Below are positions 1,481 through 60,632 of a stretch of 64,000 nt of DNA, piece after piece. The stretch is taken from positions 325,314,001 to 325,378,000 of the forward strand of contig JBNRSN020000005.1 of the NCBI GenBank assembly GCA_051313645.2. Direction: 5' to 3'. The translations under genes and the position numbers were made by a program. Within the stretch, counting starts at the first letter, position 1. Every line of letters starts with the position of its first letter. The DNA is from Centroscyllium fabricii (lineage: Eukaryota). The notes beneath the pieces are model-generated. The model made no database searches, was not told the origin of the DNA, and saw only the letters and a program-made list of their open reading frames with translations.

Positions 1481-2364
1481 GCTGCCAAAACAAGGTAAGC
1501 TAGGCAATTTATTTTCCTCGTACAGCTGTATAATTGCCATGAATGCACTCCAATGAAGTAAAGGTACCTTTTATTTCAATGATCACAAGATGAAGAAGGA
1601 TGCGAATACCATTCAAACCATCTTAGCTCACCATCCAGTAACAAAAAAATCCTCCGACAAACCATTGATGTTCATGGCATCAAATTTTTTCTTTGATGGT
1701 TCCAGAGTTTTTGGGCTGGATTTTCCAAGTCCCGAGGAGGCGGGCATGGAGGCAGGACAGCTGGGGAACTCGGAGAAATTCTGGGCGGATGGCAAACCCA
1801 CCCCCATTCCACCTCCGTGCCCGTTTGCCAGGAGGCGGGAAGATGTGCAGCTTCGGTTCCCGTCTCCTGGAGGCGGGAAAGGCATTTAAAGGCAGTTGAA
1901 GGCTTCCCGACCTCGGAGAACCCCGCCAGGTTGGAGGAGACATGGAGAAGGTCTGCAGCGGTCGGAGGCACCTGGAAGTAAGGTGTACAGGTGAGTGATG
2001 GTTGCAAGTGTGGAGTGGTAAGTATGTAAGGTGTGTGGTGGTACGCCGGCTGGCGAATCCGCCTCGGGAGTACTGCGGGGCATAGCCCCGCCCACCGGGT
2101 GACGCGATGACGTCACCACGTCTCTCGGCGTGATGAGGTCACGAGCGGCGGGTAGTTTAAATAAGCCTGCTCCTCGTGGTTCAGTCTCTTTCTTGCTTAT
2201 GTAGTTGTTAATTAAACAAGTGTTATCTGTCTCTCCGGCTCCTGTGTGGTTCTTGGGTCCTGCAAGCGCTACAGTGGTGACCCCGACTTGGAACGTCTTC
2301 CAAGGAGAAAACAGCAGCTACAGGACTGAAAACCAAGCAGCCTCAGAACACTTTCAAAAACAAC

Positions 2365-3100
2365 ATGACTTCCAGAAACCAAGCTTCTCGTTTACAAGGA
2401 CTTGGCCAGAACCCCGAGCACAGACTAACTCTACCGGAGTTCTGGGAGCAACGCCCGGCAGCGTGGTTTATGTGTATAGAGACCAGCTGCCACACACATG
2501 GCATCCAGGGGGACGACCGCTATGACCTGGTCTTTTCGGCCCTACCGCAATCGAAGATCGATCGGATGTGGTCGAAGCTACAGCGCGTGCCCACAGCAGG
2601 CAGGTATGAATTTATCAAGGCCGCGCTACTTAAAAAATTCACTCCCTCCCAGTTCGAGCACGACTGCCAACTCCTTAACCTCCCCGAACTCGGGGACGCA
2701 GACCCATCGGACCTTTGGGGCCAAATGCAAGCGCTCACCGCCGATCCCGCCTCCCTGTTCCGCACCATATTCCTCCTTAAACTGCCCCCCTCCATCAGAC
2801 CGGCCCTGGCGGCCTTCTGCCACCAGAGCAGGGACGAGCTAGCCGAGGAAGCCGACAGGGTCATGGCGGCCGAGCGCACCCGCTCCGCCACGTGCGACCT
2901 CACTGCCGCGGCAGTCGAGCCCACCCACTCGCCCCCCAGGTCCAACCCAACGCCTGAACCCAGGCCCCCGCGCCCTCCCAAGCAACCGTGTGCATCAAGC
3001 ACCGGTCACTGCTACTACCACGCGCGGTTCGACACCAAAGCGCACCGCTGCGTCCAGCCCTGCACGTTCAAGCCACGGCCCAGCCCCCACCACTATGTCT
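2365..3100 (+). CDS. Gypsy gag
   Basis: LPEFW...PAAWF at the N-terminus and the C-terminal CYYHARF...AHRCVQPC motif typical of CsRn1-type Gag. The true end is uncertain because the frame overlaps pol. Confidence 0.8.
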
Positions 3101-6100
3101 GTAGGACACACCGGAGCTCTGCTCTACGTCACAGACAGCGGCACAGGCCTCCGGTTCCTCTGCGACACAGGCGCACAGCACAGCATCGTGCCAACCTCCC
3201 CCGCAGAAGCCAAAAAAGGCACCCGGGGCCCGCCACTCGCGGCTGCCAACGGCTCGGACATCAAAACGTACGGCACCCGCAAGCTAACAATCCAGCTTGC
3301 CGGCCACACATACCAATGGGAGTTTGTCACGGCCCAGGTCACTTCACCCCTCCTCGGGGCAGATTTCCTCTGCGCCCACGGCCTCCTGGTCGACATGTCC
3401 CGGCGCCGCCTGGTCGACATTCAAAATATGTCAACCATCCCATGCTCCACAGGGCCTGCACTCCTGGCCCACGCGGCGGCACAATGCCGCGCCCGGAACT
3501 CTGACGCGTACGGCTCGCTCCTCGCTGAGTTCCCAGCCCTTACCAATCTCACCTTCACCGCCCGCACGGCCAAACACGGGGTGGAACACTTTATCACCAC
3601 CACCGGCCCTCCCTTGCATGCCCACGCCTGCAGGCTGGTCCCGGCCAAGCTGGAGATTGCGCGCACCGAGTTCCGCACTATGGAGCAACTCGGCATAATC
3701 CGCCGCTCCAGCAGCCCCTGGGCCTCTCCCCTCCACATCGCCCCCAAGCCGGGCGGGGGTTGGCGCCCCTGCGGCGACTACCGCCGCCTCAACAACGCCA
3801 CCACCCCGGATAGGTACCCCGTACCCCACATCCAGGATTTCTCCGCCAGGCTAGCGGGCTGCACGAACTTCTCCAAGATCGACCTGGTGCGTGGCTACCA
3901 CCAGGTCCCGGTGCACCCGGCGGATGTCCCTAAGACAGCCGTAATTACCCCCTTCGGCCTGTTCGAGTTCCTCAGGATGCCCTTTGGACTCAAAAACGCG
4001 GCCCAGGCCTTTCAGCGCCTAATGGACTCAGTCCTACGGGACTTGCAGTTCATTTTCGTCTATTTAGACGACATCCTCGTGGCCAGCACCTCCCCCCAGG
4101 AGCACCTCCTGCATCTCAGGACCCTGTTTCAGCGCCTGACCGAACACGGCCTCATATTAAGCCCTTCTAAATGCAAATTTGGCCTAGATATTATAGACTT
4201 CCTGGGCCACCGCATTTCCAAAACCGGGGCCATACCCCTGCCCTCCAAAGTGCAGGCAGTTCAGGAATTCCCCCGCCCGCACTCCATTAAGGGCCTGCAG
4301 GAGTTCTTCGGGATGGTTAACTTCTATAACCGCTTCATCCCAGGTGCAGCCGCTCTCATGGCTCCCCTATACCAGGCCACACGCGGGCAGTCCGGCAAAA
4401 CTGCGGTCGAGTGGACGGCCGACGCCGCCACCGCGTTTACCGCAACCAAGACCGCCCTGGCCAACGCCACCCTCCTAGCCCACCCTAGGCCCAATGCCAG
4501 AGTGGCCCTCACCACTGACGCCTCCGACCACGCTGTCGGGGCCGTTTTCGAACAGTGGGCGGGCAACTCCTGGCAGCCCCTGGCCTTTTTCAGCCGGCAA
4601 CTACGGCCCCCGGAGGTCAAGTACAGCGCCTTCGACAGGGCGCTCCTCACTCTCTACCTCGCTGTGCGCCATTTTCGCTTCCTCCTGGAGGGCCGTCCCT
4701 TCACAGCTTTCGTGGATCATAAGCCGCTCATATTTGCAATGGCTAAGATCGCCGAACCCTGGTCGGCCAGGCAGCAGCGCCAACTCGCAGCCGTGTCGGA
4801 GTTCACTACCGACATCCAGCACATCTCCGGCCGCGACAACGTGGTTGCTGACTGCCTGTCACGTCCCACCATTAACGCCGCCCAAATGGCGGTCGATTAA
4901 GCCAAGCTGGCAGCAGACCAGCGGGCAGACCCAGACCTGCTCGACCCAGCAGAAAACCTCCCTGGCCTACGCTTGGCCAACATCGCACATGGCCCCGCAG
5001 CCACCGTAGTCTGCTGCGACGTATCGTTACCGCAGCCCAGACCCGTCGTCCCCCACGCATGGAGGCGGCGCATTTTCGAGACCCTCCATGGCCTGTCCCA
5101 CCCAGGCACCCGCGCCTCCATTAAACTTATTTCGGCCCGTTTTGTGTGGCGCGGCCTACGCAAAGACGTCCGCGCCTGGACCAACGCCTGCATCGCCTGC
5201 CAGTGGGCCAAAGTGCACAAGCACATCAAAGCCCCGCTGGAAACGTTCACCGTGCCGGCCAGGCGCTTCGACCACGTCCATGTCGATCTCGTCGGACCAC
5301 TGCCGCCATCCCGGGGCCACACACACGTCATGACCATGGTCGACCGCAACACTCGCTGGCCAGAAGCAGTCCCCCTGGTTGCTACCAACACCACGGACTT
5401 GGCCAGGGCGTTCATCGCGACTTGGGCCGCCCGTTTCGGCGTGCCCACCGACATCACGTCAGACAGAGGTCCCCAATTTACGTCGGCACTATGGGCGGCC
5501 ATCGCCCGCGACCTCGGGGTGACCCTACATAGAACCACCGCGTACCACCCACAAGCTAACGGGCTCTGCGAAAGGTTCCACCGCTCCATGAAAGCCTCCC
5601 TGCGGGCCAGCCTCAAAGACGCATCATGGACAGACCGTCTCCCTTGGGTACTGCTCGGACTACGCTCGGCGGCCAAGGAAGATTTGCACGCCTGAGCAGC
5701 GGAACTCATCTACGGCCAGACATTAAGAGTGCCGGGCGAGTTTCTCGCCGAATCAAACGCTCCCTGGTCGGCCGACCAGTTCCTCAAGGACTTTGCAAAC
5801 CCGGCACGAGCGTTCACCCCCTTACCGGTGGCCCGGCACGGAGAGCCGGCGGCACGTGTACCGGACAACATCAAGCACGCAAAGTACGTGTTCGTCCGTC
5901 ACGACGCCCATCGTTCACCTCTACGGCCACCTTACGACGGCCCTTACAGAGTGCTTCGGGCAGGATCCAAAGCTTTTCAGCTACAGCTGGGCAACCGGAC
6001 AGAAATTGTCTCCATCGACCGGCTGAAACCGCCACACGTAATAGCGGGCGACGTGACAGTCCCCGCCCAGCCACCTCAACGCGGACGCACTCCCACACCA

Positions 6101-6187
6101 ACACCCGCCCACACTCCACCGCAGAACCAGGAGCAACGCACGACACATGCCGGCCGCATCTTACGGCCACCACGACGCCTCACATAG
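3095..6187 (+). pseudogene. Gypsy pol (PR-RT-RNaseH-IN) with two in-frame stops
   Basis: Protease FLCDTGA, RT MPFGLKNA and YLDD, RNase H TDAS, integrase H-H-C-C/DDE and GPY/F (PYDGPY). All in one frame, with TAA at 4898-4900 and TGA at 5693-5695. Confidence 0.92.
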
Positions 6188-7058
6188 ACTCTTTTCCTCT
6201 CGGATGGATTCTGGGGGGAGCTGTGTGGCGGTACGCCAGCTGGCGAATCTGCCTCGGGAGTACTGCGGGGCAGAGCCCCGCCCACCGGGTGACGCGATGA
6301 CGTCACCACGTCTCTTGGCGTGATGAGGTCACGAGCGGCAGGTAGTTTAAATAAGCCTGTTCCTCGTGGTTCAGTCTCTTTCTTGCTATGTAGTGCTAAT
6401 TAAACAAGTGTTATCTGTCTCTCCGGCTCCTGTGTGGTTCTTGGGTCCTGCAAGCGCTACAGGTGAGTGATTAGTTTAAAAAAAATGTTCACTTACCTTG
6501 TTCTCCTTCCATAGCCTGTAGCCGCGGAGCATCGGGAGAGCCGACATCCTGCTTGTCAATTTCAGGTAATGGCTGATGGACCCTTTGATCCATCAGACAT
6601 CTGAAATTTACAAATTTGCAATGTTTCATGAGTCCTCCCCTCAAAGACTCATCAAACTAAAGAGAATGTCAGTGTTTGACAGCTTCACAGAGCTGTCAAA
6701 TGCTGTCATTTCTTCTTTCAAGAAGTCTTGACAGATAGCCCGTCTGACGTTGATGTGCTCTGTCAGTGACTTCTTCCCTAATTGGCCTGCTGAGCCCGCA
6801 GGGTGGGCTTAACGAGCTCAATCAGGGGAAAATCTCTCTGAATGGTCAGGCGAGGATGGAGGCGGGACAGTGGCACGACAAGCAGCATTCCCGCTTCCAA
6901 CTCGCCTCCACTGACAAAATCCAACCCTTTGTCTCGAAAATTCTACCCAATATCCATTCTCTCTGTTGGCCACTCTTTGTGTAGGAATAGAAGAATAGAG
7001 GGGCAGGATGGTAAGAGGTAATTAGACTGGCTTTCATAGCTCTCAGGTAGGCCTCGAA

Positions 7059-8346: not shown

Positions 8347-8464
8347 TTGTATACATTTTGTGCTCCCTCATGTTCCTTCCGACAGACGTGTCTCTCCCTC
8401 CCAAACACCATCCTTCTTTTCTTTTCTTTCGTATGGTGGTGGCAAAGCAAATCAAATGTCAATA

Positions 8465-8946
8465 CAGGTCCAACACCATTAATCCGGCATGGTCGGGACC
8501 AGGACGGTGCCGGATCTTTGAAAATTCCGAACGATTGAAGCTTCGGCGAGCGCATGTGCAGACCATTCAAAATGGTCGCCGCCAAGGCCGGTGGCCATTT
8601 TGAATGGTCTGCGCACGCGCTCGCCGAAGCATCAATCGTTCGGGGAGAGGCCCGGGCATGCGCAGCCAAGCGCGGCGGCCATTTTGCGCATGCGCAGCCA
8701 AGCGCGGCGGCCATTTTGCGCACGTGCAGACCAGCCGGGCAGTCGGGGAGTGGCCCGGGCATGCGCAGCCAAACGCGGCGGCCATTTTGTGCATGCGCAG
8801 ACCAGTCAGGTAGTCAGGGAGAGGCCTGGGCATGCGCACCCTAGCGCGGTGGCCATTTTGCGCATGCGCAGACCAGTCGGCCGGATTCATTCCGGACGAC
8901 TGAAGTTGCCGGATTAACGGTGGCCGGATTAACGGTGCTCAACCTG
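8465..8946. mobile_element. pogo/Tigger-like MITE with internal GC-rich repeats
   Basis: TA-flanked TIRs CAGGT...CACC(A/G)TTAATCCGG. Repeated TGCGCATGCGCA and GGCCATTTT motifs inside. Confidence 0.8.
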
Positions 8947-8954
8947 TATCTGAG

Positions 8955-10240: not shown

Positions 10241-10567
10241 AAGTAACATATCCTTCTGTTTCTTTCCCTCTCATGTGTTTATCGAGCTTCCCCTCGACTG
10301 CATCGATGCTATTCACCTCATCTACTCCGTGTGGTCGCGAGTTCCACATCCTAACCACTCTCTGGGTATAGACGTTTCTCCTGAACTCCCTGTTGCATTT
10401 ACGAGTGACTATCTTACATTTTTGGCCCCTGGTTCTGGACTCCCCATTGAGCAAACAAAAATATTTGATTTAACAAACTACTTTGGAGCTGCAATTAAAA
10501 CAGAAAATGCTGGAACTGCTCAGGGGGTCAGGCAGCATCTCTGGAGAGAGAGAGAAACAAAGTCATC

Positions 10568-11717
10568 GGGGGGGGATTTTCGCAAAGGTGTGGGAACCTG
10601 GCGGGTTTTGGGCGGATCAGGTTTCTGACACAAATGTTCAAGGTCCTGGAAGCCCCACGCAATTTTGGCTTAATTGGCCAATTAATTGCCCGCGTGTCAG
10701 AGCCCCTGCCTGTTGTGTATGTGCCTTTAAGTAATTATGCTGGGCACTACTTTGTGTAGTGTCGTAATACTGTTATACCCCTCGTGTTCAGAAGCATTGT
10801 AACTGTAAGAGTAAATTAAGAGGGGAGGAATGTTGTGTATGTGCCTTTAAGTAATTATACTGGGCACTACTTTGTGTAGTGCCGTAAAACTGTAGTACCG
10901 CAGTCAACCACTAGTGTATATAAGTTTGTGCGCGGTACGATATGTTCAGTTCCATTCTCTGTAATTGATGAATAAACACCTATTTGTTTTACACCCTGGA
11001 GTCGGGTCCGTTGTTCTATGAGACACATAGCACGGACTTAACACTGCCAATTGACTGATTACAGTCAGAAAACAGCAGAGCTGCAGTTGACAGCCGGAGG
11101 TTTGATTGATAGGGGTAAGGACTGTGTGTTGTTAGTTTCTCTGGAAACAGTGCATTATGACATCACAATGGAGTGCAACCAATCTCAAAGCCCAAGTGGG
11201 TTGAGTGACAGGTCTATAGACTCGCTGGGAAGCTCACAGTTAGGGGCCGTCTCTCTGTGAAGCATTTCCATTCATCTGTCAGATACATTTCTAGAAGGTT
11301 TTCTCCACAGCTGCTCCTCAGACAAGGGAGTCACTTACACCTCCAGGGTGTTGAAGGCCTGGAAGGCATTCTGCTACAAGTCGCTCAATGCCTTGAAGGT
11401 GAAAGTGACCAAGCCAACCGTGATCCCGCTAGGTTTCACCGGCAGGGTTTCAGGATGGCGGGGTATGGGTGGGAAGGGCTCAAAAATCGCGAGGGGCCCT
11501 TAAAATGGGATTACCCATGGCAATTAAGGGCCCCTAACGAGCTCAATGATCAATCACGCCGATGGCGTGTGGGAAAGATTCAGGCCGGCTAGACACGTCG
11601 GCCGAAAACTGCAAAGCGGTGGGGATCCGGCGGGAGGAGTCGGGACCCCCCGGTTTTGGGATTTTAAGCCCCGCCCCGCCGGAAACCTGCCCTCACGGCC
11701 CTCCGAAAATCCCCCCC
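10568..11717. mobile_element. Harbinger-like non-autonomous element containing a solo LTR
   Basis: Ends GGGGGGATTTTCG...CGAAAATCCCCCC. Confidence 0.7.
10711..11043 (+). mobile_element. Solo LTR with internal tandem duplication
   Basis: TG...CA ends, 5-bp TSD CTGCC, TATA-like box near 10917 and AATAAA at 10971. The first ~65 bp are repeated at 10831. Confidence 0.85.
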
Positions 11718-11946
11718 AATGTTTCAGGTCTCTGACCCTTCATCAGAACTGGAAAAAGGTTTCATCTCTAACTTTTTCCAGTTCTGACGAAAGGTCATCG
11801 ACCTGAAACACTGACTCGGTTTCTCTCTCCACAGATGCTGCCTGACCCGCTGAGCACTTTCCAGCATTTTCTGTTTTTATTTCAGATTTCCAGCATCCAC
11901 AGTAATTTGGCTTTTGTATTTTTTTTACTTCAGTGCAGCTTTAGTT

Positions 11947-12811: not shown

Positions 12812-14135
12812 TGAGAATCACACAGCACAGAAGGAGGCCATTCGGCCCATCGTGCCTGTGCCGGCTCTTTGAACGAGCGGTCCATTTCGTCCCATTCCCC
12901 TGCTCTTTCCCCAGAGCCCTGCAAATTTTTTCTCACCAAGTATTTGTCCAATTCCCTTTTGAAAGTTACGATTGAATCTGCTTCCACCGCCCTTTCAGGC
13001 AGCGCATTCCAGATCATAACAACTCGGTGCATTAAAAAATTTCCCTTCATCTCCCCTATTATTCAACGGCAAGATGGCGGCGCGCATAGACGCAGCTGCT
13101 TTGCGTCTCCCGTTTTTTTAGTGTCCCTGGTCCCGCACTGTTCCTGGAGAGGACGGCGGGGTCGGTGGAGTGGAGCACCGGTGCTCCTCAATCGGGGCAC
13201 CGGTGCTGAACAAGCCGTCGCGGTCGTCGGAGCGCCGGGGTGCTGAGAGCGGGCTCGAAGAGTCGTCGGGCCTCATGGGGCCGTGGGCGTCGGGAGAGCC
13301 GTGGGGCTCGAGGAGTCGTGGGGCTCGAGGAGCCGTCGGGCCGTGGGCCTCGGGAGAGCCGTGGGGCTCGAGGAGTCGTGGGGCTCGAGGAGCCGTCGGG
13401 CCATGGGCCTCGGGAGAGCCGTGGGGCTCGAGGAGTCGTGGGGCTCGAGGAGCCGTCGGGCCGTGGGCCTCGGGAGAGCCGTGGGGCTCGAGGAGTCGTC
13501 GGGCCGTGGGCCTCGGGAGAGCCGTCGGGCCGTGGGCCTCGGGAGAGCTGTGGGCCTCGAGGAGCCGTCGGGCCGTGGGCCTCGGGAGAGCCGTGGGGCT
13601 CGAGGAGTCGTGGTGCCGTCGGGCTTGGTGAGATGGAACAGGGGTTTGCTCTGTCCACTCCCCTGGCATCGTGGCTGCAGCGCCTGGTGGGATGGAAAGG
13701 ATCAGACTGGGACCAAGGACATTTAATAATTTGGGAGATTGCATGTTTGCATTTTGTTGTTCTGTGTATGTTCACTTTACAATGACAATAAATTGAATCT
13801 TATCTTATCTTATCTTATTTTGTCAATTCCCTTAAATCTGTGTCATCTGGTTAATGACTCTTCTGCCAGCGGAAACCGTTTCTCCATAGCTACTCGATCA
13901 AAACCCCTTATAATTTTGAACACCTCTATTGAATTTCCCCTTAACCTTCTCTGCACCAAGGAGAACAATCCCAGTTTCTCTCGTCTCTCCACACAACGGA
14001 GGTTCCTTTCCCCTGGGACCATTCCAGTCAATCTCTTCTGCGCCCTCTCCAAGGCCTTGACATCCTTCATAAAGTGTGACGTCCAGAATTGGACACAATG
14101 CCCCAGCTGAGGTTGACCCAGTGATTTATAAAGGT
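12812..14135 (-). mobile_element. CR1 LINE 3' fragment, interrupted at about 13062-13817
   Basis: ALERAQKRLTGMVPG...LGLFSLVQRRLRG, then WNALPERAVEA after the insert. Confidence 0.85.
13062..13817 (+). mobile_element. Non-autonomous Rex1-like retroposon with GC-rich minisatellite
   Basis: 5' CAAGATGGCGGC start, minisatellite at 13250-13625, and a 3' end CAATGACAATAAA plus (ATCTT)n resembling the Rex1 tail at 445-490. Confidence 0.6.
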
Positions 14136-14183: not shown

Positions 14184-14555
14184 CAGGTTGAGCACCGTTA
14201 ATCGGGCACGGGCGGGACCAGGCCCGTGCCGGGAAATGGAAAAAACCGGGAGAACGAGTTTGGACACTGCGCATGCGCGCCAGTCAAAATGGCCGCGCGC
14301 ATGCGTGCAGCATTGCGATTGGCTGGCGCGCGCATGCGCAGATCGGACACGGGTCCGCCGTCCCTCTCCATCGCCTTTGGACAAATGCAAAAAGTCACAC
14401 AACACCAGGTTTAAAGTCCAACGTTTTATTTTAAATCACAAGCATTCGCTGATGGGGGCTGCCATTTTGCGCATGCGCAGTGCAGTCGGGACAATTTGTG
14501 CCGGCAGACTGAAGCTGCCGGCTATTCGGGACACGGATTAACGGTGCTCAACCTG
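14184..14555. mobile_element. pogo/Tigger-like MITE
   Basis: Perfect terminal TIR CAGGTTGAGCACCGTTAATC with TA TSD. Confidence 0.88.
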
Positions 14556-15378
14556 TATAGGAGAACATTAGCACACAGCTGAAAAATGGTTGTGTGTGAA
14601 ATATTAATTAGGAAAACATTGACTGATATGAAATTTTAAAATGCACACAGATTAAATGAGGTTCTTCAGAGCTCTGCTGATGACTTGGTTGTTAACCTAG
14701 TGCAGGTATATAACTGAGTCCAATGTTGAAAGGGCATGACTTGATTGGTAACATACCCCATTTCTGAGCCATACTGACTGACAGTCTCAGATTTGAGTCC
14801 AGACAGTTGCAGTCAGCCAGGCATTAGAGGTGCTCCAACTGGTCTCATAGAAACATAGAAGATAGGAGCAGGAGTAGGCCATTCGGCCCCTCGAGCCTGC
14901 TCCGCCATTCAGTGAGATCATGGCTGATCATCCAAACTCAGTACCCTGTCCCTGCCTTCTCCCCCTATCCCTCGATCCCTCTAGCCTTAAGAAATACATC
15001 CAGCTCCTTCTTGAATATATTCAATGAACTAGCCTCCACCGCCCTCTGTGGTAGAGAATTCCACAGGTTCCTGTGGTTTCAGTGCTCCTGGGCTGTGGAG
15101 GAGAAAAACCAGGTAGGCTTTCAGTCCTGGATGTTACTACATTTCGGGAAAGTGGACGTGTGTGGATGTTTGGTGAGGACAGGGTCAGATTTGCCTGTGG
15201 TGCTTGAATAGCCCACCAAGACTCACTGCCTATGTGAAAAGTGGCCACAAATCTTTGCTAGGTAGTGACAGGAAGGGATATGGAGCAACGGCAGGTAAAT
15301 GGAGTTGAGGGACAGATCAGCCGTGACCTAATTGAATGGCGGAACAGGCCTGAGGGGTCGAATGGCCACCTCCAGTTA

Positions 15379-15725: not shown

Positions 15726-16708
15726 TACTAATGTTCCTAGGGACAAAATGGCGTGGAACCACATCCCAACAGCATTCAACCAACCTTCAGGAGAGGACGA
15801 GGGAAGAGGATCTGCACAAAACGTATTACACCCTCTACCCAATGAATGGGTCCTTCAGTCTCACCAGTCAGATTGCCTCACTGCCCATGTATCTGGTATT
15901 ACAATGGCATCTTTATAACATTTTACATAGGATTACGTAGGATATACGGCACTGAAACAGGCCATTCGGCCCAACCAGTCCATGACGGCGTTTATGCTCC
16001 ACTCGAGCCTCCTCCCATCTTTCCTCATCTAACTCTATCAGTATAACCCTCGATTCCCTTCTCCCTCATATGATTGTCTAACCTCCCCTTAAACGCATCG
16101 ATACTATTCGATTCAACCACTCCCTGTGGTAGCGAGTTCCACATTCTCACCACTCTTTGGGTAAAGAAGTTTCTTCTGAATTCCCTGTTTGATTTCTGTT
16201 GATGGCCTCTAGTTATGCTCTTCCCCACAAGTGGAAACATTCTCTCTCTGTATCCACTCTACCAAAATCTTTCATAATTTTAAAGACCTCTATTAGGTCA
16301 CCCCCTCAGCCTTCTTTTTCAAGCGAAAAGAGACCCAGCCCGTTCATCCTTTCCTGATATGTATTCTCATCCTTTTCTTCACATTTCTGGTATCATCCTT
16401 GTAAATCTTCTCCAGTGCCTCTATATTCTTTTTATAATACGCCAACCAGAACTGTATACAGTGCTCTAAGTGTGGTCTAACCAAGGTTCGATACAGGTTC
16501 AGCAAAACATTCCTACTTTTCAATTCTGTCCCTCTAGAAATAAACCCTAGTGCTTGGTTTGCTTTTTTTATGGCCTTGCTAACCTGAGTCGCTACGTTTA
16601 GTGATTTGTGTATTTGCACTCCGAGATCACTTTGTTCCTCTACCGCATCAAGACTCGCACCCTCCAAGTAATAGGTGACCTCCCTATTCTTCCTACCAAA
16701 ATGTAATA

Positions 16709-17320
16709 CAGGTTTAAGTTCATTAATCCAGCAGGGTCGGGACCAGCACCGTGCCGGATTGTTGAAAACGGCGAATTATTGAAGCCACGGCGGCGCATGC
16801 ACAGAACATTCAAAATGGCCGCCGCAAAATTGTCAATTCTCTGCGCATGCGTTCGCCGGAACCTGGCAGTTGATTTTCGGCCTAAGGGTTGGGTGGAACT
16901 CGCACTCGATTCTGCTGCGGGTCAGGAAGCGGGCTGCACGGCTCCAGCGGGCCTGAGGCCCAATGCGCGGCTCAAGCCTGGCTCATGTGACTCCACCGTA
17001 CGCCAGCTTCGGTACGCGGTGACGTCCGCACGCAGCCAGGCAGGAGCCTCCGGCAGCGATGGGCACCGAGCATTGCCTGTATCGCGTCCTGCGAAAGGCG
17101 GCTGGCACAACAGCTCATCTTCTGGGCCTGAGATTCACCATCGGCATCGGGCTGGTCACTAAGCCGGGATCCAGTGAGTATATGTTAGGTGAAAGGAAAG
17201 CCCAGCCCCGACAGTGGCCATTTTGAATTGTCTGCGCATGCGCCGGGCAGTCGGGAAAATCTGTGCTGAACGACTGAAGCTGCTGTTTTTTTGGGTGCCG
17301 GATTAATGAACTTCAACCTG
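16709..17320. mobile_element. pogo/Tigger-like MITE
   Basis: CAGGTTTAAGTTCATTAATCC...GGATTAATGAACTTCAACCTG. Confidence 0.8.
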
Positions 17321-17333
17321 GACCTCACATTTA

Positions 17334-17594
17334 CAATAGCAAAATACTGTGGATGCTGGAAATCTGAAATAACAACAGAAAATGCTGGAAACACTCAGCA
17401 GGTCAGGCAGCATCTGAGGAGAGAGAAACAGTGTTAACGTTTCGGGTCGAGGACCCTTCGTCAGAACTGGATAAGGTCAGAGAAAGAAAAGGTCAGAGAA
17501 GAGAGATTTTTAACCTCGACCTGAAACGTTAACTCTGTTTCTCTCTCCTCGATGTTGCCTGACCTGCTGAGTGTTTCCAGCATTGTCTGTTGTT
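17334..17594. mobile_element. Fold-back Penelope pLTR-derived mini-element
   Basis: Inverted arms and a 12-bp TSD ACCTCACATTTA (17322-17333 / 17595-17606). Confidence 0.82.
17433..17467 (-). ncRNA. Minimal type I hammerhead ribozyme motif
   Basis: Minus strand reads GTT-CTGACGA-AGGGTC-CTC-GACCC-GAAA-CG-TT-AAC. This gives the core CUGANGA/GAAA, stem I GTT/AAC, stem II, and a palindromic AACGTT stem III with a GUU cleavage triplet. Confidence 0.8.
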
Positions 17595-18531
17595 ACCTCA
17601 CATTTATCTGTGTTGAACTTCATTTGCCAATTATTTGCCCATTCTGCAAGTTTATTAATGTCCTTCTGTAACTTGTCGCCGTCCTCCTCAGTATTGACTA
17701 GCCCCCCCAATTTGGTGTCATGCGCAAATTTAGAAATTGTGTTTTTGATTCCTAAGTCTAAATCGTCAATATAAATTGTGAACATCAGTGGTCCCAGCAC
17801 TGATCCTTGTGGAACACCACTACCCACCTTCTGCCACTGTGAATAGCTACCCTTTACTCCTACTCTTTGCTTTCTGTGCTTTCAGAGGAAACGTAATCCT
17901 AATTTTTTTGTGGCAATGCAACCACAATGAAGACTGTCAATGTGAACACAATCTTCCCCACTCCATTTCAAAATTTAACACGTCAAAGGTCTCGCTCTGA
18001 CTTTGTGCTCCCAATGGGGAGGCTTCTCTCCGGGAATACACGCCAGCATTTGGGGTCCACACTGTGGAGAAGTTTCCTGCCATTGGTTTAAATGATCAAA
18101 AAATCATGTGCAGCCTACGGCCGAATTTCCAGTATGCAATCCCAGTGGGCCAAAGCTCTTTTTCTTTTATCCATTGATGGGATGTTGGCGTCGCTGGCTG
18201 GCTAGGCCAGCATTTAGTGCGCATCCCTAATTGCCCTCGAGAAGATGGTGGTGAGCCACCTTCTTGAACTGTTGCAGTCCATATGGTGTAAGTACACCCA
18301 CAATGTTGTTAGGAAGGGAGTTCCAGGATTTTGGCCCAGCGACAGTGAAGGAGCGGCGATACAGGTCCAAGTCAGGATGGTGTGTGGCTTGGAGGGGAAC
18401 TTGTAGGTGGTGCTTTACCAGGAGCATGAAGTTAGAAAATGGCCCCTATCGCTGGGACCGGGAAGGTATGCCACTTGTACAACTGATTTGAGAACCCAAT
18501 TGAATACCAGCTTCCACCATCACCAACATAT

Positions 18532-21501: not shown

Positions 21502-23706
21502 CGAGGGGGTGGTCCTGGAAATCGTGGGAGTAGCGGGAGACCCAGATCAGCTCCTCGTTTTGACAAGGTGGCCCTGCAGGCTTTAGTAGATGGGGCTATA
21601 GCCAACAGGGAGGTGCTCTTCCCTTCTACAGGGAGGAAGGGGCCTCCCAAACAGACCGAGGCAGTGTGGATGCAGGTGGCTGAGGAGGTCAATTCATTGG
21701 GAGTCACCCACAGAACCTGATACAGTGCCGCAAGAGGTTTCATGACCTTCTCCGCACTGGAAAAGTGAGTATGAATTTCCCATCACCCTCAATCTGATCC
21801 CCATTGCCTCTCCTCACCTCAGCTTTAGCAATCTCTTCCTTCACACTCCAGTTGACACTGACATCCATGCACCCTTACCCATTCCCTTTCTCTCTATGGT
21901 CACATTCACATAACTATTCGATTATGCAGCCCTCACACTCCCTATCACTGTGATGCTATGAAAACAACTGACAACACACAGGGAGGGCCCTTGGTCTTGC
22001 CACCTCACTCCATCTTTGTCTCCTTCTAAGTATCGATGCGATGGAATTTCTACAGTCACTGCTTCATTCTCACTCAACCTCCACTTGTCTCCCTCATTGC
22101 AGGAAGAGAGCTCACAATAAGCGAGAAAGAGCAAGGACAGGAGGAGGGCCACACTCACTAGCCCATCTCAACCCCTGGGAGGAGGCGGTCCTGGAAATCG
22201 TGGGAGTAGAGGAGGAGGCGTAAGTGAGGGATGGACAGATGGGTGCAAAACAGTAAGCTGGTGACAGAACAGTTTCCCATCTCTTTCATTGGCATTGCGT
22301 GAGTCGCTGATAATGATTCAGAAGTTCTAACAGATGGACTTGAGCATCTGCAATATGCAATGTGCATGTAATCTTGGCATCAAGTTGATGTGCGATCAAT
22401 TATACTCGAGGCGAGGTTCAGAATACAACTGAGGCTTTTATTCACTAAGAACCCTGGACATCCTTAGACTGACCGGCAACTCCTTGTACTGGGCCAAGCT
22501 CCCAGAGCTCGGGCCTTTATCAGGTAGGCTAGGGGCGGAGTCAGCTTTAGGCATGCCCGGGCATGTATACACACAGGCAAATATATACAACAGTGGTTTA
22601 CCACACAAGTTTCTGACTCTTTCCTTTACTCCCCCACAGGACCATCGCAAGCATCCATCCCCACTAGCCAGGAAGAATAGGCTGAGCAGCCAGACTCCTC
22701 AGAGGAAGCTGCAACCTCTGAGGGCACAGCGTCAGCATAATTCAGCGCACCCAGCACCAGCACAGACACTCACAATTCGCTGAGACCTTCGGGACATAGA
22801 GTAGTGTCATCACCTGGTGTATCACAGCTCACAAGTGAGCATCAGCAGATTGTGGAGACAGGGACAGCAGTGGAGAGTCCTAGTCGGAGGGCAGAGGACT
22901 CTGCCAGCTCGGCTCAGCTGTATGTCAACACTCTGCCTCTGGGTCCATCCATAAGATCAGCGGTGCTGGAACTCCAGGAACAGATGCAGGAGTCTCTGGC
23001 AGGTTTTGTCTCCAGGGTCGCTGCAAGTATAGAGCGAATGAAGGAGTCCGTAGCGACCATGAGCAGAGCCTTTGTGGAGTCATTGGCGCATGAACGCATC
23101 ACGACAGAAAGGATGGCAACCTCCCTCGAACAGATGGCACCAATAGATGAGAGGATAGCTTCGGCCTTGGAGGAGATAAGTCGCCAGAGTGCAGAAAACA
23201 TGGTGAGTGTTCAGAATAGAATAACATCTCTGGAGGAGCGATGGTCATCTATTGAACAGAGAAACCAGACCTTCATGGAAGTCCTTCTGAGTAGGACTGC
23301 CATTGCAGATACGGGTCCCCATGGCCCCCCTGATGTGCAGCAAGGTGCTCTCAAGCCACTTGCAGGTGCTGAGGGGGACCTGACCCATGAAAGGGAAGTT
23401 GATGGCAGACATCAAGGAAGTGAGGTCTCCTCTCCAAGCACTCACACTTTCAAACTACTGCAGAGCTCTCGGTCAGAGCCCCACCAGAGTCCACACCCAA
23501 GTGAGATAGGCATCTCAACCCCTGCACAGCCGCAGGAGCAGCAGACTGTTGACGAGCCCTCACAGCCTCGCAACCCCAGAGGACGCCCACCAAAGGTGTC
23601 GAGATAGGAGCAGCAGCAAAGTGAGCAAGGGGCCTCCACATCTGCTGAAGCCACAGGGGAGGCACCATGTAGGAGCAGGCGTAAGAGAAAAATTCTGCAC
23701 AAATAG
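21502..23706 (+). pseudogene. Harbinger Myb/SANT-like DNA-binding protein gene, three exons, disrupted
   Basis: Exon 1 APRFDKVALQALVD...W..VAEEVN...RT[W]IQCRKRFHDL (1-bp deletion near 21719; donor gtgagt at 21765). Exon 2 at about 22103-22252, KRAHNKRERARTGGG. Exon 3 from 22640 with a coiled-coil-like segment. Confidence 0.8.
22386..22605 (-). mobile_element. Solo LTR in intron 2 of the Myb-like gene
   Basis: TG...CA ends, 5-bp TSD CAAGT, and AATAAA on the minus strand. Confidence 0.8.
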
Positions 23707-23909
23707 TCACTTGGGTGAAATGTTGTGTTTATTGTAAAAATATCATCAGTTGGTTCTTGTACATAAAAATTCTAATGGCAACTGTTGCAGTTGTGGCGTG
23801 TGTCATTTCGCGAATGGGACTTTCACATTGTGAGCTTAGGATTACTTGCAACTGTCAGTATGCTGGTCAAATTGCTCGGAATCAGCAGGGTCTTGGCCAC
23901 TGTCGATGT

Positions 23910-25185
23910 TCAGGCAAGAAGCTGCGAGGCAAAAGTGCTTGATCGGCTAGGCTGAGCAAATCTGGCCAAGATGCATGTGTTCCTTGCATCACGGGTAGCA
24001 ATGTTCTCGTGCAATACTGCCGCTGGTTGATGGGCCTCTGCAGGATGTTCATTTTCACACTCCTCCTCCTCCTCCACCACCTCATCTGAGGAGGGTATCT
24101 GAGGAGCCATTTGGTCCTCAGGAATCTGCAAGCCATGACGCTGTGCCATGTTGTAAAGTGCACAGCAAACCATGACGAATCTGGAGACCCTGGCTGCTGA
24201 GTACTGCAGGGCTCCATCGGATCTATCCAGGAATCTGAAGTGCAGCTTCAGCAAACCGATGGTTTGCTCAATTATGGCTCTGGTGGACATGTGGCTGGAG
24301 TTGTAGCTCTCTTCAGCGTCGTTGGATGGGCTCCTCAATGGCCTTAGTAGCCACGTCTTCAGGGGATAGCCCTTGTCTCCAAGTAGCCATCCATTAAGTT
24401 GGGCTGGCAGACTGAATAGCGGAGGCACACTAGACTGGCACAGTATGAAGGAGTCATGGCAACTGCCAGGGTACTTGGCACAAACATGCACAATTTCCTT
24501 CTTGTGGTTACACACCAGCTGAACGTTAAGGGAGTGGAAGCCCTTGTGGTTGACAAAAATACGTGGATTGCGATGGGGTGCCTTAAGGGCCACATATGTG
24601 CAGTCAACAACGCCCTGCACCCTTGGAAAGCCTGCAGACTAGCTAAGCCAACTGCACACGCCGTGACACTTGCTTGATCCTTGGTGGAATGGATGTGATT
24701 GTGTGCGCGATTGCAAATAGAGCATCGGTTACCTGCATGATGCAAGTGTGTGCGGCCGCCTGGGAGATGCCGCTGATGTCTGCTGCTGATCCCTGGAATG
24801 AGCCGGAGGCAAAAACGTTAAGTGCGGTGGTGACTTTGATGACCACTGGTAAGGGTTGTCCACCTGGTCCTCTGGCCTGCAGGTCTTGTTTCAGCATTGC
24901 GCAGATGTCACCCACTATCTCTCGCTAAAGTCGGAGCCGCCTTTAGCACTGCTGCTTAGATATGTTGAGGTAGCTGACCCTGTGTCTGTAGACCCTGTTT
25001 GGGGGGTATCTCCTGTGCCGACGGGTTTCCAGGCGCTGGCCCCTTCTGGCCTGTGCAGCTTCAGGTGGGTGAGCAGCAGCCTGGCGCTCCTGTTGGTGCT
25101 GCTGTTGTTCCTGGTTCTGCTGGTGCCGCGGCTGGTGCTCGAGCTCATCTAATGCCCAGATGGGAAGGAAATAAATGGCTCCCAT
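23910..25185 (-). pseudogene. PIF/Harbinger DDE transposase (HARBI1-like), with stops and a frameshift
   Basis: HTH region [11 protein letters not shown]...GISQ, then [40 protein letters not shown] and [12 protein letters not shown]. Confidence 0.93.
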
Positions 25186-25624: not shown

Positions 25625-26524
25625 GGGGGAACTTTTAGGAGGTCCCTGAGTGCGGGTTTCTGGCGGGTCAGTTTCTAAAATTCCAATCCGGCGGGCGGGA
25701 AGGCACCCCGCCGGATCCCCACCCATTTGGGATTTTCGTCGGGCGGGTTTGGCCGCCCCGCATGTTTCCCGCTCGCCGCCGGCGGGGATACAGATTGAGG
25801 TCATTGAGGGCCCTTAATTGGATGGCTAATCCTATTTCAAGGGCCCTCAGCTATTTTAGCCCTCTTCCCACCCAAAACCCGCCTGGTGAAAACCCCGCCG
25901 TGAAAAAGGTGGTGGGAACCAGGTGGCTGGGTGTCTACCACCTTCAAGGCATGGGCACAGCACCCATACAGCAGCTTGCTAGCCTCCACCATGCTGGAGG
26001 TGCAGCTGCCACCCAAGGGTGAGAAACTTCAGAGCCCAAAACCCTGAAATCATTCATCTTCAAATCGCTCCTATTCAACAGAGATCGTGCTGCTGCGCTG
26101 TCTGTGAGCCCAGCTGTCAATCACCCAGGGGATCAGTTTCTGTTTACATTCCATTGAAACCACAAACAAACAGTGACTCACTTCAACTGTTTGTTTTGTG
26201 GTTTCAAGTGGTCCTTTCATAGTCTGACTCACAGAGGCTATGTAAACATAGAAACAAAGGCAACACTTCAGATCTGTCAATCAAGCTGAGTGAGTTCTTA
26301 CTACTCAGGCCTATCAATCAACAGCCCGCCCAACTCAAACTGTGAATGTAAAGGGCTATGTTCCCGCCCATTAGTGTACATTGGAAGCCCGACAGTCTGG
26401 TGGAGATTTAATTGGCCACTTGAGCCAAAATCGCTCAGGCCTCCCAGGTCCTTGGGCAGGTGGGGCAGAAAACTGACCCGGCCAAAACCCACCAGCTTCC
26501 CACAGCTTTTTTAAAATTGCCCCC
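25625..26524. mobile_element. Harbinger-like non-autonomous element
   Basis: GGGGGAACTTTT...AAAATTGCCCCC with 3-bp TSD TTC. Interior related to 10568-11717 and 41972-42893. Confidence 0.75.
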
Positions 26525-33682: not shown

Positions 33683-33817
33683 ACCACAATTCTGCTCAGT
33701 TTCTTCTCTCTCTCTCCAGTCAAGGCCTACCGAGTATCCTTCCTCTCCCTTTCCCACTGTGATCTGAGGAACATTAGGAACAGGAGTGGCCCATTCAGCA
33801 CCATTCAATGAGATTGT

Positions 33818-34874
33818 TGCAAGAAGTCACACAACACCAGGTTATAGTCCAACAGTTTTATTTTAAATCACAAGCTTTCGGAGCTTCTGCCCCTTCGTCA
33901 AGTAAAAGAGAGACTGACTTAAAGAACGCACATATGGGAGGAAGAGAGAAATCTGATCTCCCACATCTCACCTTAGCAGAGACAGACAGAGCACACAAAG
34001 GCGTATTAACATATTTTAACACATCAGTCTGAGATCAATGAGGCACAGTCGCAAGGGGTCAAATCCTGCAAAACACACAGAATGATTTTAAAAAAAAAGG
34101 AATTTCCTTACAAGACAAAGATGTCCCTAGTCTGGATGACTCTACGTCAGGCAGGGTCACATGTAGCGTGACATGAAGCCAATATCACGGTTGAGACCGT
34201 CCTCATGGGTGCGGAATTTGGCTATCAGCCTCTGCTCGACGATTTTGCGTTGTTGTGTGTCTCGAAGGCCGCCTTGGAGAATGCTTACCCGAAGATCGGA
34301 GGCTGAATGTCCTTCACTGCTGAAATGTTCCCCGACTGGGAGGGAACATTCCTGCCTGGCAATTGTTGTGCGGTGTCCGTTCATCCGTTGTTGAAGTGTC
34401 TGCGTGGTCTCGCCGATGTACCATGCCCCGGGGCATCCTTTCCTGCAACGTATGAGGTCTCAACCATGATATTGGCTTCATGTCACGCTACATGTGACCC
34501 TGCCTGACGTAGAGTCATCCAGACTAGGGACATCTTTGTGTTGTAAGGAAATTCCGTTTAAAAAAAATTCATTCTGTGTGTTTTGCAGCATTTGACCCCT
34601 TGCGACTGTGCCTCATTGCTCTCAGACTGATGTGTTAAAGTATGTTAATACGCCTTTGTGTGCTCTGTCTATCTCTGCTAAGGTGAGATGTGGGAGAGAT
34701 CGGATTTCTCTCCTCCTCCCATATGTGCGTTCTTTAAGTCAGTCTCTCTTTCACCTGACGAAGGGGCAGAAGCTCCAAAAGCTTGTGATTTAAAATAAAA
34801 CTGTTGGACTATAATCTGGTGTTGTGTGACTTCTTGCAATTGTCCACCCCAGTCCCAACACCGGCACCTCCACA
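33818..34874 (-). mobile_element. Penelope-like element remnant with inverted pLTRs and GIY-YIG C-terminus
   Basis: ORF 34157-34384(-) NGHR...PVGEHFS...E..LIAKFRT...GLN. About 370-bp inverted arms, 13-bp TSD TCAATGAGATTGT, and hammerhead motifs at 33868-33905(-) and 34751-34788(+). Confidence 0.88.
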
Positions 34875-34941
34875 TCAATGAGATTGTGGCTGATCTTTAC
34901 CATAACCCCATTTATCCGCCTTGGCTCCATATCCCTTAATA

Positions 34942-35427: not shown

Positions 35428-35674
35428 GAGCTGTCTTCTGTCCTATTACCACCTCGTCTCGTTTTGAATAACTCTCATTGTCTCTTCTCGTCCCTTGGTT
35501 CTCTCACAGCCCTCCTCTATCCTTCTCGGCTCTCTCATCAGTCTCGACAAAGGGAACGACCCAAAACGTTGACTCTGTGTTTCTCTCCACCGATACTGCC
35601 TGAGCTGCTGAGTTTTTCCAGCATTTTCTGTTGTTGCTTTGGATTTCCAGCATCTGCAGTATTTCGTTATCGTC
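35428..35674 (+). mobile_element. Penelope pLTR fragment inside a CR1 3' piece
   Basis: 15-bp TSD TTGAGATTTCTGCTA and a degenerate hammerhead at about 35540-35575. Confidence 0.72.
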
Positions 35675-41971: not shown

Positions 41972-42893
41972 GGGGTCAATTTTCATGGAGCTGGCAGGTG
42001 GCTTTATTGGCAGCTGGGGAGGGAAAATTGCTAAAATGGGGGTCACGACCCCTCCCGCCATTTTCCCGCCAGCTTGTCAGTTTCACCCGGCAGGTCCGAT
42101 TGGCCCATTTCAATCCCGCCCAAATTCGGCGGGGATGGTCATTAGGCTCATTAGGAGCACTTAATTGGCATCTGTAATGCCGTTTCAAGGGCCCATATCT
42201 ATTTTGAGCCTCTTCCCATGCAAAACCCGCCTGGTTGGAACGCCGTTGCTGAAACCTGGCGGACACACAAGCGGCTTGGTGACTTCCACCTTCAAGGCAT
42301 TGAAGCACCTGCCACAGAATGGCTTCCTGGCCTCCAACATGCTGGAGGTCTAACTGTCTCCCTGGGGTGCCCAAGATTAGTGGCCAAAAACCTTTAAAAA
42401 ACGTACCTACCAGCTGCTTCCCAGTGCTTCACAGACAGGCGCTCCATAGCTGTCAAGAGCCTGCCAGTGAAACAAAGCACTTAGAGCTGTCAATCATCAA
42501 GTTGCTGTTAGTTTCTGTTGACAGTGGATTCTGATGTCACAATCCACTGAAACCACAAACAAACAGAACAGATTAGTTAGAGCTGTCAATCATCGAGTTG
42601 TGGTTACAATCTGTTGACAGTGGATTATGACGTCACAATGCCCTGAAACCACGGAAAGAAAAACACCAGCCCACTTAGAGCTGCCAATCATCGGCTCTGC
42701 TTCTTGCACAGTGGGAAGCCCACTGCCTTTCTATGCAAAATCAATCAATTGGCAGGGGCTTCCCACACTCGGGGATTTAATTGGCCAATTGAGCCAAAAT
42801 TGCGTGGGGCTTCCACACCCTTCAGAAAGCGGGAAGATAAAGTGATCAGCGGGGAACCCACCCATTTCCCACACCATGACGAAAGTCGACCCC
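41972..42893. mobile_element. Harbinger-like non-autonomous element
   Basis: GGGGTCAATTTTC...GAAAGTCGACCCC with TSD TAT. Confidence 0.78.
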
Positions 42894-42904
42894 TATGACT
42901 CTAA

Positions 42905-49335: not shown

Positions 49336-49730
49336 GAAGCGTATACTCTGTTCAAAGCAGTGATAGACCTGGGTGAATGTCCCTGTGCTGTTTCTCCGAC
49401 AAGGGCAGTGAGCACACGGGAACACCACCACCTCAAAGGTCCCCTCCAAGTCACACACCATCCCGACTTAGATTTATATCACCGTTCGTTCATCATCACT
49501 GGGTCAAAACCTCGAACTCCCTACCCAACAGCACTGTGGGAGTACCTTCACCACAAAGACTGCAGCGGTTCAAGAAGGCGGCTCACCCCCCACCTTCTCA
49601 AGGGCGACTCGGGGTGGGCAATAAATGCTGGCCTTGCCAGCAATGCCCACATCCCCAGATTGAATTTAAAAAATATACGATTAAAGTTTCTGTAGCTGAA
49701 ACTGTTTGGCCATTTTATCTAAACTTACAT

Positions 49731-49936
49731 AAAAACAGAAAATGATGGAAATATGCAGGTCAGGCAGCATCTGTGGAGAGAGAAACAGAATTAATGTTTC
49801 AGGTTGATGACCCTTGGTCAGAAGCGCGAACTGAAACGTTAACTCCGTGTTTCTCTCTCTACAGATGCTGCCCGACCTGCTGAGCATTTCCAGCATTTTC
49901 TGTTTTTCGTTCAGATTTCCAGCATCCGCAGTATTT
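49731..49936. mobile_element. Fold-back Penelope pLTR-derived mini-element
   Basis: Inverted arms, TSD TCTAAACTTA(C/T)AT and degenerate hammerhead cores at the centre. Confidence 0.78.
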
Positions 49937-50600
49937 TCTAAACTTATATTTTTGTTATATTCTTTTCATAAAATCAGCAAGGCTTTTCAATCCTACCTAT
50001 TCATTGCCACCTATTCCGGAATAACAAAATGCCAACTTATGTGCATTGAGTAGCCAAACAGCGCTGCTGTGCATATGCCCTGACAGACACATTGACAGAT
50101 TAATTATATAGCTATGGCAGCAGGGACCCTGACAATATGCTTTTATTTTTACCTCGGTTTTATTAAAAAGAATTATCATTTTTATAACACCAGATGTGAC
50201 CAGATCTGTTGCCAACTGTGATAGCACTTTGGTGTTAGTGAAATGGAAATCCAGATCTCAGAGGAAAATTCAAACCCAGAATCGGAGGAATTTTCAATCC
50301 AAGATGCTATGCTGTAGACCCCTGGAAGGCTGGTCGGTGATTTGAGTTTGATGCTTTGTAAATCCCTGGGCCGGACAGTGTCCACATGCTGGCAGCCTGG
50401 ATGTTGCGTGTTCCAATTCCTTAGTAATCTAAGGAAAGCTCCCAAAGACATTCCAATATTGAGACTTCTCATGATAAATTAATGGAGCTGTTCTTTGCTG
50501 CAATTGGTCCTGCCCCATCAGTACGTCATTGGAGCAGCTCTGGCCACATGCTCGAGGCGGGGTAGCAAGATTCAAAGCATTCTTTAATCTTAAGGGATAT

Positions 50601-51079
50601 ACAGGTTGAGCACCGTTAATCCGGACACCGTTAATCCGGCAACTTCAGTCGTCCGGAACGAATCCGGCCGACTGATCTGCGCATGCGCAAAATGGCCACC
50701 GCGCTTGGCTGCGTGTGCCCGGACCTTCCTGAACGAAGAGCGCATGCGCAGACCATTCAAAATGGCCGCTGGTCTTTCGCGGCAGCCATTTTGAATGGTC
50801 CCGAACGATCCCGGGCCTCCCCGAACGATGAGCGCATGCGCAGACCATTCAAAATGGCCGCTGGTCTTTCGCGGTGGCCATTTTGAATGGTCCAGAACGA
50901 TCCCGGGCCTCCCCGAACGATGAGCGCATGCGCAGACCATTCAAAATGGCCGCCGACCTTTTGCGGCGGCCATTTTGAATGGTCTGCGCATGCGCTCGCC
51001 GAAGCTTCAATCGTTCGGAGTTTTCACTTGTCCGGTATATGCCTGGTCCCGACCGTGCCGGATTAACGGTGCTCAGCCT
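50601..51079. mobile_element. pogo/Tigger-like MITE with tandem YY1/NRF1-like units
   Basis: CAGGTTGAGCACCGTTAATCCGG TIR and about three ~90-bp internal units containing GCGCATGCGCAGACCATTCAAAATGGCCGC. Confidence 0.85.
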
Positions 51080-51350: not shown

Positions 51351-51509
51351 CTTTTGGTCTTGGCCGTAGGCCAGAATCCAATCCTCTTCTTGCGGATGGA
51401 AGAGCATACTTTGAATCTGAAAGCTTTGGCGGTACTTTTGATAGGTCGCGCCTTCATCCGAGCTGATCAGTACACTGCTCTCAATCTCGGGGTCACTCAC
51501 GAGCATTAT
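51351..51509 (-). CDS. SORCS1: Internal coding exon (159 bp, phase 0/0) of a SORCS1/SORCS3-like Vps10p-domain receptor
   Basis: Translates IMLVSDPEIESSVLISSDEGATYQKYRQSFQIQSMLFHPQEEDWILAYGQDQK, with a BNR/Asp-box motif (SSDEGATY). Pyrimidine-rich acceptor ttttctcttttctcctgccttgaacag and donor AAG|gtgaga. By recall, the PEIE/WIL/QDQK residues favour SORCS1 over SORCS3; the paralog call needs phylogeny or synteny. Confidence 0.9.
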
Positions 51510-60522: not shown

Positions 60523-60632
60523 GGAATAACAATAGAAAATGCTCGAAACACTCAGCAGGTCAGGCAGCATCGAGGAGAGAGAAACAGAATTAACGTTTTG
60601 GGTTGAGGACCCTTCGTCGGAACAAGACCCTT
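60523..60632 (-). mobile_element. 110-bp Penelope pLTR fragment
   Basis: 13-bp TSD GTCATGTATAGCT and a degenerate hammerhead at about 60589-60623. Confidence 0.78.

Follow-up and report, generated by a model that had tools for sequence, protein, structure and literature searches.

The insert at positions 17334-17594 of the 64,000-nucleotide stretch of Centroscyllium fabricii DNA analyzed here (the window) very probably represents two truncated copies of the end of a high-copy repeat, likely the pLTR of a Penelope-like element (PLE), arranged head to head between target-site duplications (TSDs) and likely built at the time of insertion, and the hammerhead motif that it carries is predicted to be locked in a hairpin and inactive. 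The insert is likely an ordinary terminal fragment, dead on arrival, of a Penelope-like element that is itself very common. Its parts, and those of the LINE that hosts it, are as follows.

16443..16708, minus strand: left part of the host LINE, which resembles the CR1 type (self-BLAST; joints from 16706 to 17594 in all four sequencing runs)
16709..17320, unstranded: unrelated TIR-bounded MITE-like element, inserted at the TA at the target's left edge
17322..17333, plus strand: left TSD, 12 bp (paralogues of the LINE join 16706 to 17594, with the target present once)
17334..17370, minus strand: 37-nt "tail," a 3' extension on the sense arm only, the longer of the two 3' end classes of the family
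17371..17452, minus strand: sense arm, pairing with the inverted arm and containing the 3' half of the hammerhead
17433..17467, minus strand: minimal type I hammerhead (descriptor and fold, family alignment), with a predicted cut after U17 at 17436
17453..17513, minus strand: unpaired 61-nt centre, made of the 5'-truncated upstream part of the sense arm and the 5' half of the hammerhead
17514..17594, plus strand: second arm, inverted, 5'-truncated and tail-less, beginning 16 nt upstream of position 17 and not including CUGANGA
17595..17606, plus strand: right TSD, a direct-repeat match to 17322-17333
17607..17877, minus strand: right piece of the host LINE, an RT fragment with YIDD near 17773 (self-BLAST, run contigs)

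The insert is 261 bp long, and the direct repeats that flank it (17322-17333 and 17595-17606) are exact over 12 bp, with a rough estimate of 2e-5 for their occurrence by chance; the left repeat possibly extended to 13 bp at its start, base 17321 having since been altered. The arms (17371-17452 and 17514-17594) are oriented head to head and are alike in 77 of the 82 columns (5 differences, 94%), and the minus strand of the insert folds at -148 kcal/mol (z -17.5), a value equalled by none of the 200 shuffled sequences. The arm alignment and the direct repeats bear out the initial annotation, which had described a 261-bp insert of two inverted arms with a 12-bp TSD. The arms are not symmetric: the 37-nt tail is present on one of them, and the other possesses only the 3' half of the hammerhead motif. 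An open frame of 43 codons (17336-17464, minus strand) extends from the hammerhead core through the tail, and it may represent the start of the ORF of the parent element, as in other PLEs the first residues of the protein are encoded by the pLTR and the tail. A weak search with this 43-residue frame against longer proteins returned eight candidates, none at E<=0.01, and no longer relative. Just 5' of helix I of the hammerhead, a pyrimidine tract (17500-17467, minus strand) that closes with CAG (17469-17467) is reminiscent of a 3' splice site, and such a tract is also found at 11760-11780 (plus strand). Located in the loop of the hairpin and sense to the host gene, it is a possible cryptic acceptor; a comparable 3' splice site feature has been described where the intron ends in Penelope of D. 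virilis (PMC4209133).

As to the target, other copies of the host LINE possess the respective sequence once, and thus the duplication at the insert must be genuine. The contigs of four of the 21 sequencing runs, covering three organisms, were aligned to positions 16500-18200 at 85% likeness, and 22, 15, 21, and 8 contigs in the four runs were found to join 16706 to 17594, with loose ends at 16709 running on into the target sequence. The empty target is thus seen in paralogues of the LINE, and no contig of the four runs spans the focal locus itself. The LINE has been split twice, by the TIR element at 16709-17320 and by the 261-bp insert. The MITE-like element at 16709-17320 is present at high copy in one organism, the other two having close to a single copy or none, and its relatives are recognized at 8454-8949, 14184-14558, and 50599-51071.

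A complete minimal type I hammerhead had been proposed at 17433-17467 on the minus strand, and these coordinates proved right, the core letters and the helices being recovered by a descriptor. The 5' part of the motif includes C3 at 17464 and CUGANGA, with one extra A ahead of helix II; helix II consists of 5 bp (17456-17452 with 17448-17444), GAAA starts at 17443, position 17 is a U at 17436, helix I consists of 3 bp, and the core is intact. The palindrome AACGTT, originally interpreted as stem III, is indeed present, but helix III is replaced by just four palindromic nucleotides, ACGU, as the A and U that flank them in AACGUU are core positions 14 and 17. The predicted cleavage triplet is GUU, one of the cleavable NUH triplets (PMC3138052), and it was not taken as evidence against activity. 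A descriptor search of both strands, suggested as a check in the initial annotation, produced two matches in the 64 kb (17433-17467 and, at 11784, a copy of the family that has decayed), as compared with a background mean of 0.02 matches per 64 kb in 200 first-order random sequences. A scan of the whole window with Rfam at E<=1 recovered no hammerhead family, with three weak matches elsewhere, and this result was not weighed against the motif because minimal forms do not possess helix III. The motif is similar to the minimal hammerheads described for metazoan PLEs in its CUGANGA and GAAA core, the extra nucleotide before helix II, the G10.1-C11.1 pair, the palindromic 15.2-16.2 positions, and the short helix I, while it differs from them in having a U in position 17 and only half a motif in the opposite arm; helices II and I, of 5 and 3 bp, compare with 7-8 and 4-5 bp in the Schistosoma consensus (PMC4209133).

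Across the five aligned core-spanning arms, 88% of the stem cells are paired, versus 5-47% when the alignment is slid. The same five arms (five of the six core-spanning arms, the 35.5-kb copy being omitted) contain a single pair changed on both sides, and their covariation is no greater than that of shuffled alignments, 354 of 500 of which score as high. Only one of the six core-spanning arms, the focal one, has the core, the palindrome, and helix I all intact. If each arm has changed by approximately 3%, a core of 15 nt would remain intact by chance with P of 0.63, and with P of 0.39 at double this rate. Survival of the core to such an age is thus what chance alone would give, and it is not a sign of selection. 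The focal helix I has lost its fourth pair, and the opposite arm retains it.

The focal copy is one of five loci of its family in the 64-kb window, three of which are fold-backs, each with a different centre. The other four loci are listed below.

10487..11918, unstranded: second fold-back, its inverted arm split by a 1.15-kb TIR element (approximately 10569-11716)
49728..49936, unstranded: third fold-back, 209 bp, with a 10-bp TSD and the tail on the right arm
35525..35673, plus strand: single tailed arm with a decayed core
60523..60632, minus strand: single arm without a tail, belonging to the subfamily of the focal copy, with a 13-bp TSD and a decayed core

The pieces at 10.5 kb and 11.7 kb are considered one arm because the TIR element splits it; this 1.15-kb element (10569-11716) possesses 14-bp G-rich TIRs, and related pieces are found at 25625-26524, 42038-42900, and 54538-54947. 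TSD lengths at three of the loci are 10, 12, and 13 bp, and for the remaining two no TSD was found (none clear at 10487-11918, none at 35525-35673). In all three fold-backs, a tailed arm is paired with a tail-less arm. Counted from U17, the 3' ends in the family fall at +66 to +75 or at +99 to +102, and each of the three fold-backs has one end of each kind. The 5' ends are spread over positions -13 to -77, and the would-be cleavage site is spanned by all eight arms.

The family is of very high copy. In each of the four runs, representing three organisms, the deepest bin of the aligned stretch is on the arm (as summed depth, not copy number). Among the matches listed (24 of 4003), contig ends pile up at 17367 (536, 547, 469, and 259 contigs in the four runs), at 17374 (542, 536, 571, and 387 contigs in the four runs), and at 17332 (653, 612, and 479 contigs in three runs), the last of these sites being 35-42 nt from the other two, and the sequences flanking these ends are unrelated and AT-rich. 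The joints that skip the centre vary, leading from 17413, 17415, 17431, 17435, or 17465 to 17515-17519 (among the matches listed, 15 of 850). Common outer ends combined with variable centres suggest that the fold-backs are built during insertion and are not copied from a 261-bp master. The initial annotation had considered the 261-bp fold-back a mobilized, non-autonomous unit, and this proposal is at odds with the differing centres and common outer ends of both the fold-backs in the window and the paralogues in the runs. No RT or GIY-YIG ORF adjoins any of the five loci in the window, and scans of viral contigs and metagenome contigs with DNA patterns gave no matches. The family is not described in the literature found on Penelope in sharks and elasmobranchs, and it may be listed in repeat libraries (Repbase, Dfam) or in supplements.

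The Penelope-like origin put forward in the initial annotation is supported by the inverted truncated copy, the one-sided tail, the hammerhead, and the TSD. In reported insertions of PLEs, the 5' end is often occupied by an inverted copy that is 5'-truncated, and a tail of 30-40 bp is found at one of the ends (PMC8557442). In one example, from rotifers, the pLTR is inverted, a tail of 31 bp is present on one side, and the TSD is 9 bp long, the TSDs reported there being 8-10 bp, versus 12 bp for the focal insert (PMC3846280). The complex insertions described for endonuclease-positive PLEs (Penelope/Poseidon, Neptune, Nematis; PMC8557442, PMC3846280) are similar to the focal insert in the head-to-head inverted truncated copy, the one-sided tail (37 nt here), a TSD of similar size, a hammerhead near the 3' end, and an open frame through the end of the arm, but the focal copies are too short to retain any RT or endonuclease sequence. 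Of the features of this group, the focal family presents the inverted 5'-truncated copy (3 of 5 loci), the 30-40-bp tail with two 3' end classes, the hammerhead, and the short TSD, and by these four the insert would belong with the truncated inverted insertions of endonuclease-positive PLEs. The existence of dispersed single motifs, and of opposite-strand pairs from truncated PLEs with 100-700 bp between them, has been reported already (Cervera and De la Pena, 2014, PMC4209133).

A second, unrelated family in the window allows for a comparison. Its fold-back at 33818-34874 is composed of inverted arms approximately 94% alike, with a 36-nt tail on one arm and a 13-bp TSD (33805-33817 and 34875-34887), and each arm encodes a minimal hammerhead with a palindrome of its own and one core letter changed. 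Between these arms, a GIY-YIG fragment is located (34160-34459, minus strand), matching Pfam PF01541 with an E of 0.013, below the cut-off, and with an Atlas first match of 0.95 in a cluster that is 41% GIY-YIG. As the second family combines the same anatomy with a GIY-YIG fragment, this anatomy appears tied to a PLE-type endonuclease in this genome; the fragment ties no ORF to the focal family. A short end of the second family is also present at 14378-14446, inside a MITE-like element.

The insert was most likely assembled as follows. The GIY-YIG endonuclease of a PLE would make a 12-13-nt staggered cut at an AT-rich spot of the LINE, and the PLE RT would start at the two neighbouring internal sites of the family, tailed and tail-less, with uncleaved RNA as the template. 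Both cDNA products would stop early, at approximately 180 and 81 nt, and would then be joined at their 5' ends, with gap filling yielding the TSD. Tentatively, the fold-backs might be considered fossils of a two-ended, two-template integration, in which each nicked strand primes its own reverse transcription, from the tailed or the tail-less start and on separate uncleaved RNAs, the cDNAs being joined head to head. Such a possibility fits with the pairing of tailed and tail-less arms in all three fold-backs and in the second family, and with a subfamily-diagnostic difference of 1 nt between the focal arms: the inverted arm has a 1-nt gap in common with the 60.5-kb copy, and the sense arm does not have this gap. 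This is one site that would favour two templates, and gene conversion or repeated deletion would also fit. As to the biochemistry of such elements, the Poseidon protein of the anole is reported to cut and extend both target strands, with two neighbouring internal RT starts bounding the tail, and uncleaved RNA is described as the main substrate, with no RNA-seq ends reported at the hammerhead site (PMC11167929). Similarly to what is proposed for the focal family, the two neighbouring RT starts in Poseidon of Anolis carolinensis bound a tail approximately 100-140 nt downstream of the hammerhead, and the template is uncleaved RNA (PMC11167929). If the two-template reading is true, the formation of inverted structures by PLEs becomes testable by counting, given the very many short copies, and the antisense arm would represent a built-in off switch for the ribozyme.

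Other explanations need to be considered, for the assembly of the insert and for its nature. The second arm may have been produced not by a second target priming but by self-priming or folding back of a single cDNA as the template, or by an inverted duplication that took place locally at a later time, and we consider this doubtful, even though self-priming on an antisense template has been proposed for inverted repeats of rotifer PLEs that have palindromes at the junction (PMC3846280), and the arms are 94% alike. At odds with it, both outer ends of the insert are found at the end clusters common to the whole family and abut the TSD, the centre is an unpaired stretch of 61 nt with no palindrome, and the 1-nt gap of the inverted arm recurs in the 60.5-kb copy and not in the sense arm. 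This alternative only alters the step of assembly, with the PLE origin unchanged. We find it improbable that the 261-bp fold-back forms a non-autonomous element in its own right, similar to a retrozyme or a SINE, transcribed and re-inserted whole by a PLE protein in trans. The short copies of the family are in huge excess and no ORF is seen near the five loci in the window, while pLTR sequences alone are reported to be able to support mobilization in trans (PMC3846280), and there is room for a short, single-arm master RNA. However, the centres vary among the three fold-backs in the window and among the paralogous joints, with the outer ends being common, and the copy at 60523-60632, which possesses the subfamily letters of the focal copy, is a single arm. 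Nor are there tandem hammerhead units such as those in the animal non-LTR retrozymes, which are non-coding, possess type I hammerheads, are derived from PLEs, and have been reported in a cartilaginous fish, but which are described as tandems, arranged head to tail, of two or more complete motifs, in contrast to the head-to-head focal insert with its one complete motif (bioRxiv 10.64898/2026.07.22.740005). An identity as a non-LTR retrozyme was ruled out, as the insert does not form head-to-tail repeats of two or more units that possess complete hammerheads. Even less credible is a hairpin representing a MITE of a DNA transposon, or the 3' end of a twin-primed LINE or SINE, with an incidental match to the hammerhead, though the short, high-copy, inverted-repeat shape would suit it, and the window is rich in MITEs and LINEs. 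The ends are asymmetric by 37 nt, the TSDs are of 10, 12, and 13 bp, and single arms possess TSDs, which rules out a MITE (class II), and the match to the hammerhead descriptor is far above chance. In twin priming, the two arms would not cover the same sequence, and here they do, with no poly(A).

Cleavage of a host intron by the motif, suggested in the initial annotation, also needs to be weighed, and it concerns the following exon.

51351..51509, minus strand: SORCS-type (VPS10-domain) internal exon, bounded by AG...GT, which sets the strand of the pre-mRNA

This exon matches Pfam PF15902 with an E of 7e-6, below the curated cut-off, and SorCS2 (6FFY) with an E of 2e-12. It is the only host exon found in the 64 kb, short motif searches, which are not sensitive, having detected no further SORCS exon in the window. 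As the exon is internal, and as no later exon was found in the window, the insert is likely intronic and sense to the SORCS-type gene, and the placement of the motif on the same strand as the SORCS pre-mRNA holds, the exon being on the minus strand. It is conceivable that, acting as a trans-dimer or aided by a protein, the intact hammerhead cleaves the SORCS intron while this is being transcribed, and so affects splicing or mRNA output, but we give this very little credence. In its favour, the focal arm is the single one of the six core-spanning arms with the core, the palindrome, and helix I intact, the motif is on the strand of the exon, helix II is predicted to last until approximately 17430 has been transcribed, and conserved intronic type I hammerheads are reported in genes of amniotes (PMC6155905). 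The latter, of the RECK type, are conserved at an orthologous intron position and possess the canonical, monomer-active fold, versus the minimal fold of the focal motif. The evidence on the opposite side starts with folding. By nearest-neighbour calculations, in which tertiary contacts, kinetics, and proteins are not included, adopting the ribozyme-competent shape would cost +7.6 kcal/mol for the isolated motif, whose preferred fold is a hairpin with the two core strands paired, and +21.5 kcal/mol for the whole insert. In the host pre-mRNA, the antisense arm would be made first, and it would capture the 3' strand of helix II, GAAA, the palindrome, and the 3' strand of helix I, the outcome in the intron being an inert double-stranded hairpin of approximately 80 bp. 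Once the 3' half of the motif has been synthesized, pairing with the antisense arm is predicted within approximately 10 nt, and the predicted probability of helix II is 0.95 with the nascent end at 17433 and only 0.003 with it at 17427, which would leave the motif unsequestered for a few nucleotides of synthesis. In a fold of two copies, the active dimer topology reaches -9.6 versus -31.6 for the best fold, and a fold that pairs A14 with U17 is favoured over the active dimer form by 2.4 kcal/mol. The loss of the fourth pair of helix I and the P of 0.4-0.6 for an intact core by chance also count against cleavage. No tandem partner is present on the same strand, the nearest same-strand family copy being 5.7 kb off, with a broken palindrome. 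Single minimal hammerheads of PLEs are reported not to cleave in vitro, and their dimers to cleave weakly (PMC4209133); the PLE hammerhead of the anole is reported to cut only with its protein (PMC11167929), and one of nine dimers of Xenopus retrozymes is reported to cleave (bioRxiv 10.64898/2026.07.22.740005). With an antisense arm, transcribed first, predicted to bury the 3' half of the motif, with a helix I of 3 bp, with no near tandem partner, and with the published single motifs being inert, cleavage of the SORCS intron is unlikely on these models, and the earlier proposal of co-transcriptional cleavage is not upheld. In the very remote event that the ribozyme did cut the intron, it would represent a retroelement-derived regulator of a neuronal receptor gene.

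The locus by itself is of little weight, being one of very many truncated ends of retroelements, with three such hairpins in 64 kb. It does present a caution for genomic scans, in that a hammerhead core found intact in an intron, in sense orientation, is no evidence of cleavage if an upstream antisense arm covers the core. The family overall, on the other hand, represents a useful natural data set on how PLEs build inverted insertions.

Multiple other mobile elements are present in the window. One example is a Gypsy-type LTR retrotransposon at 2029-6462, whose LTRs (2029-2274 and 6219-6462) are approximately 95% identical and which possesses long gag/pol frames with matches to protease, RT, and RNase H; a second, more broken Gypsy-type element is found at approximately 55664-59447. 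Another example is a likely PIF/Harbinger-type transposon at 22741-24638, with two facing ORFs, one of which matches DDE_Tnp_4 with an E of 1e-32. Tandem arrays with periods of approximately 60, 57, and 52 nt are located at 13251-13633, 53955-54479, and 62154-62572, respectively, the last of these being a repeated piece of a SINE-like repeat.
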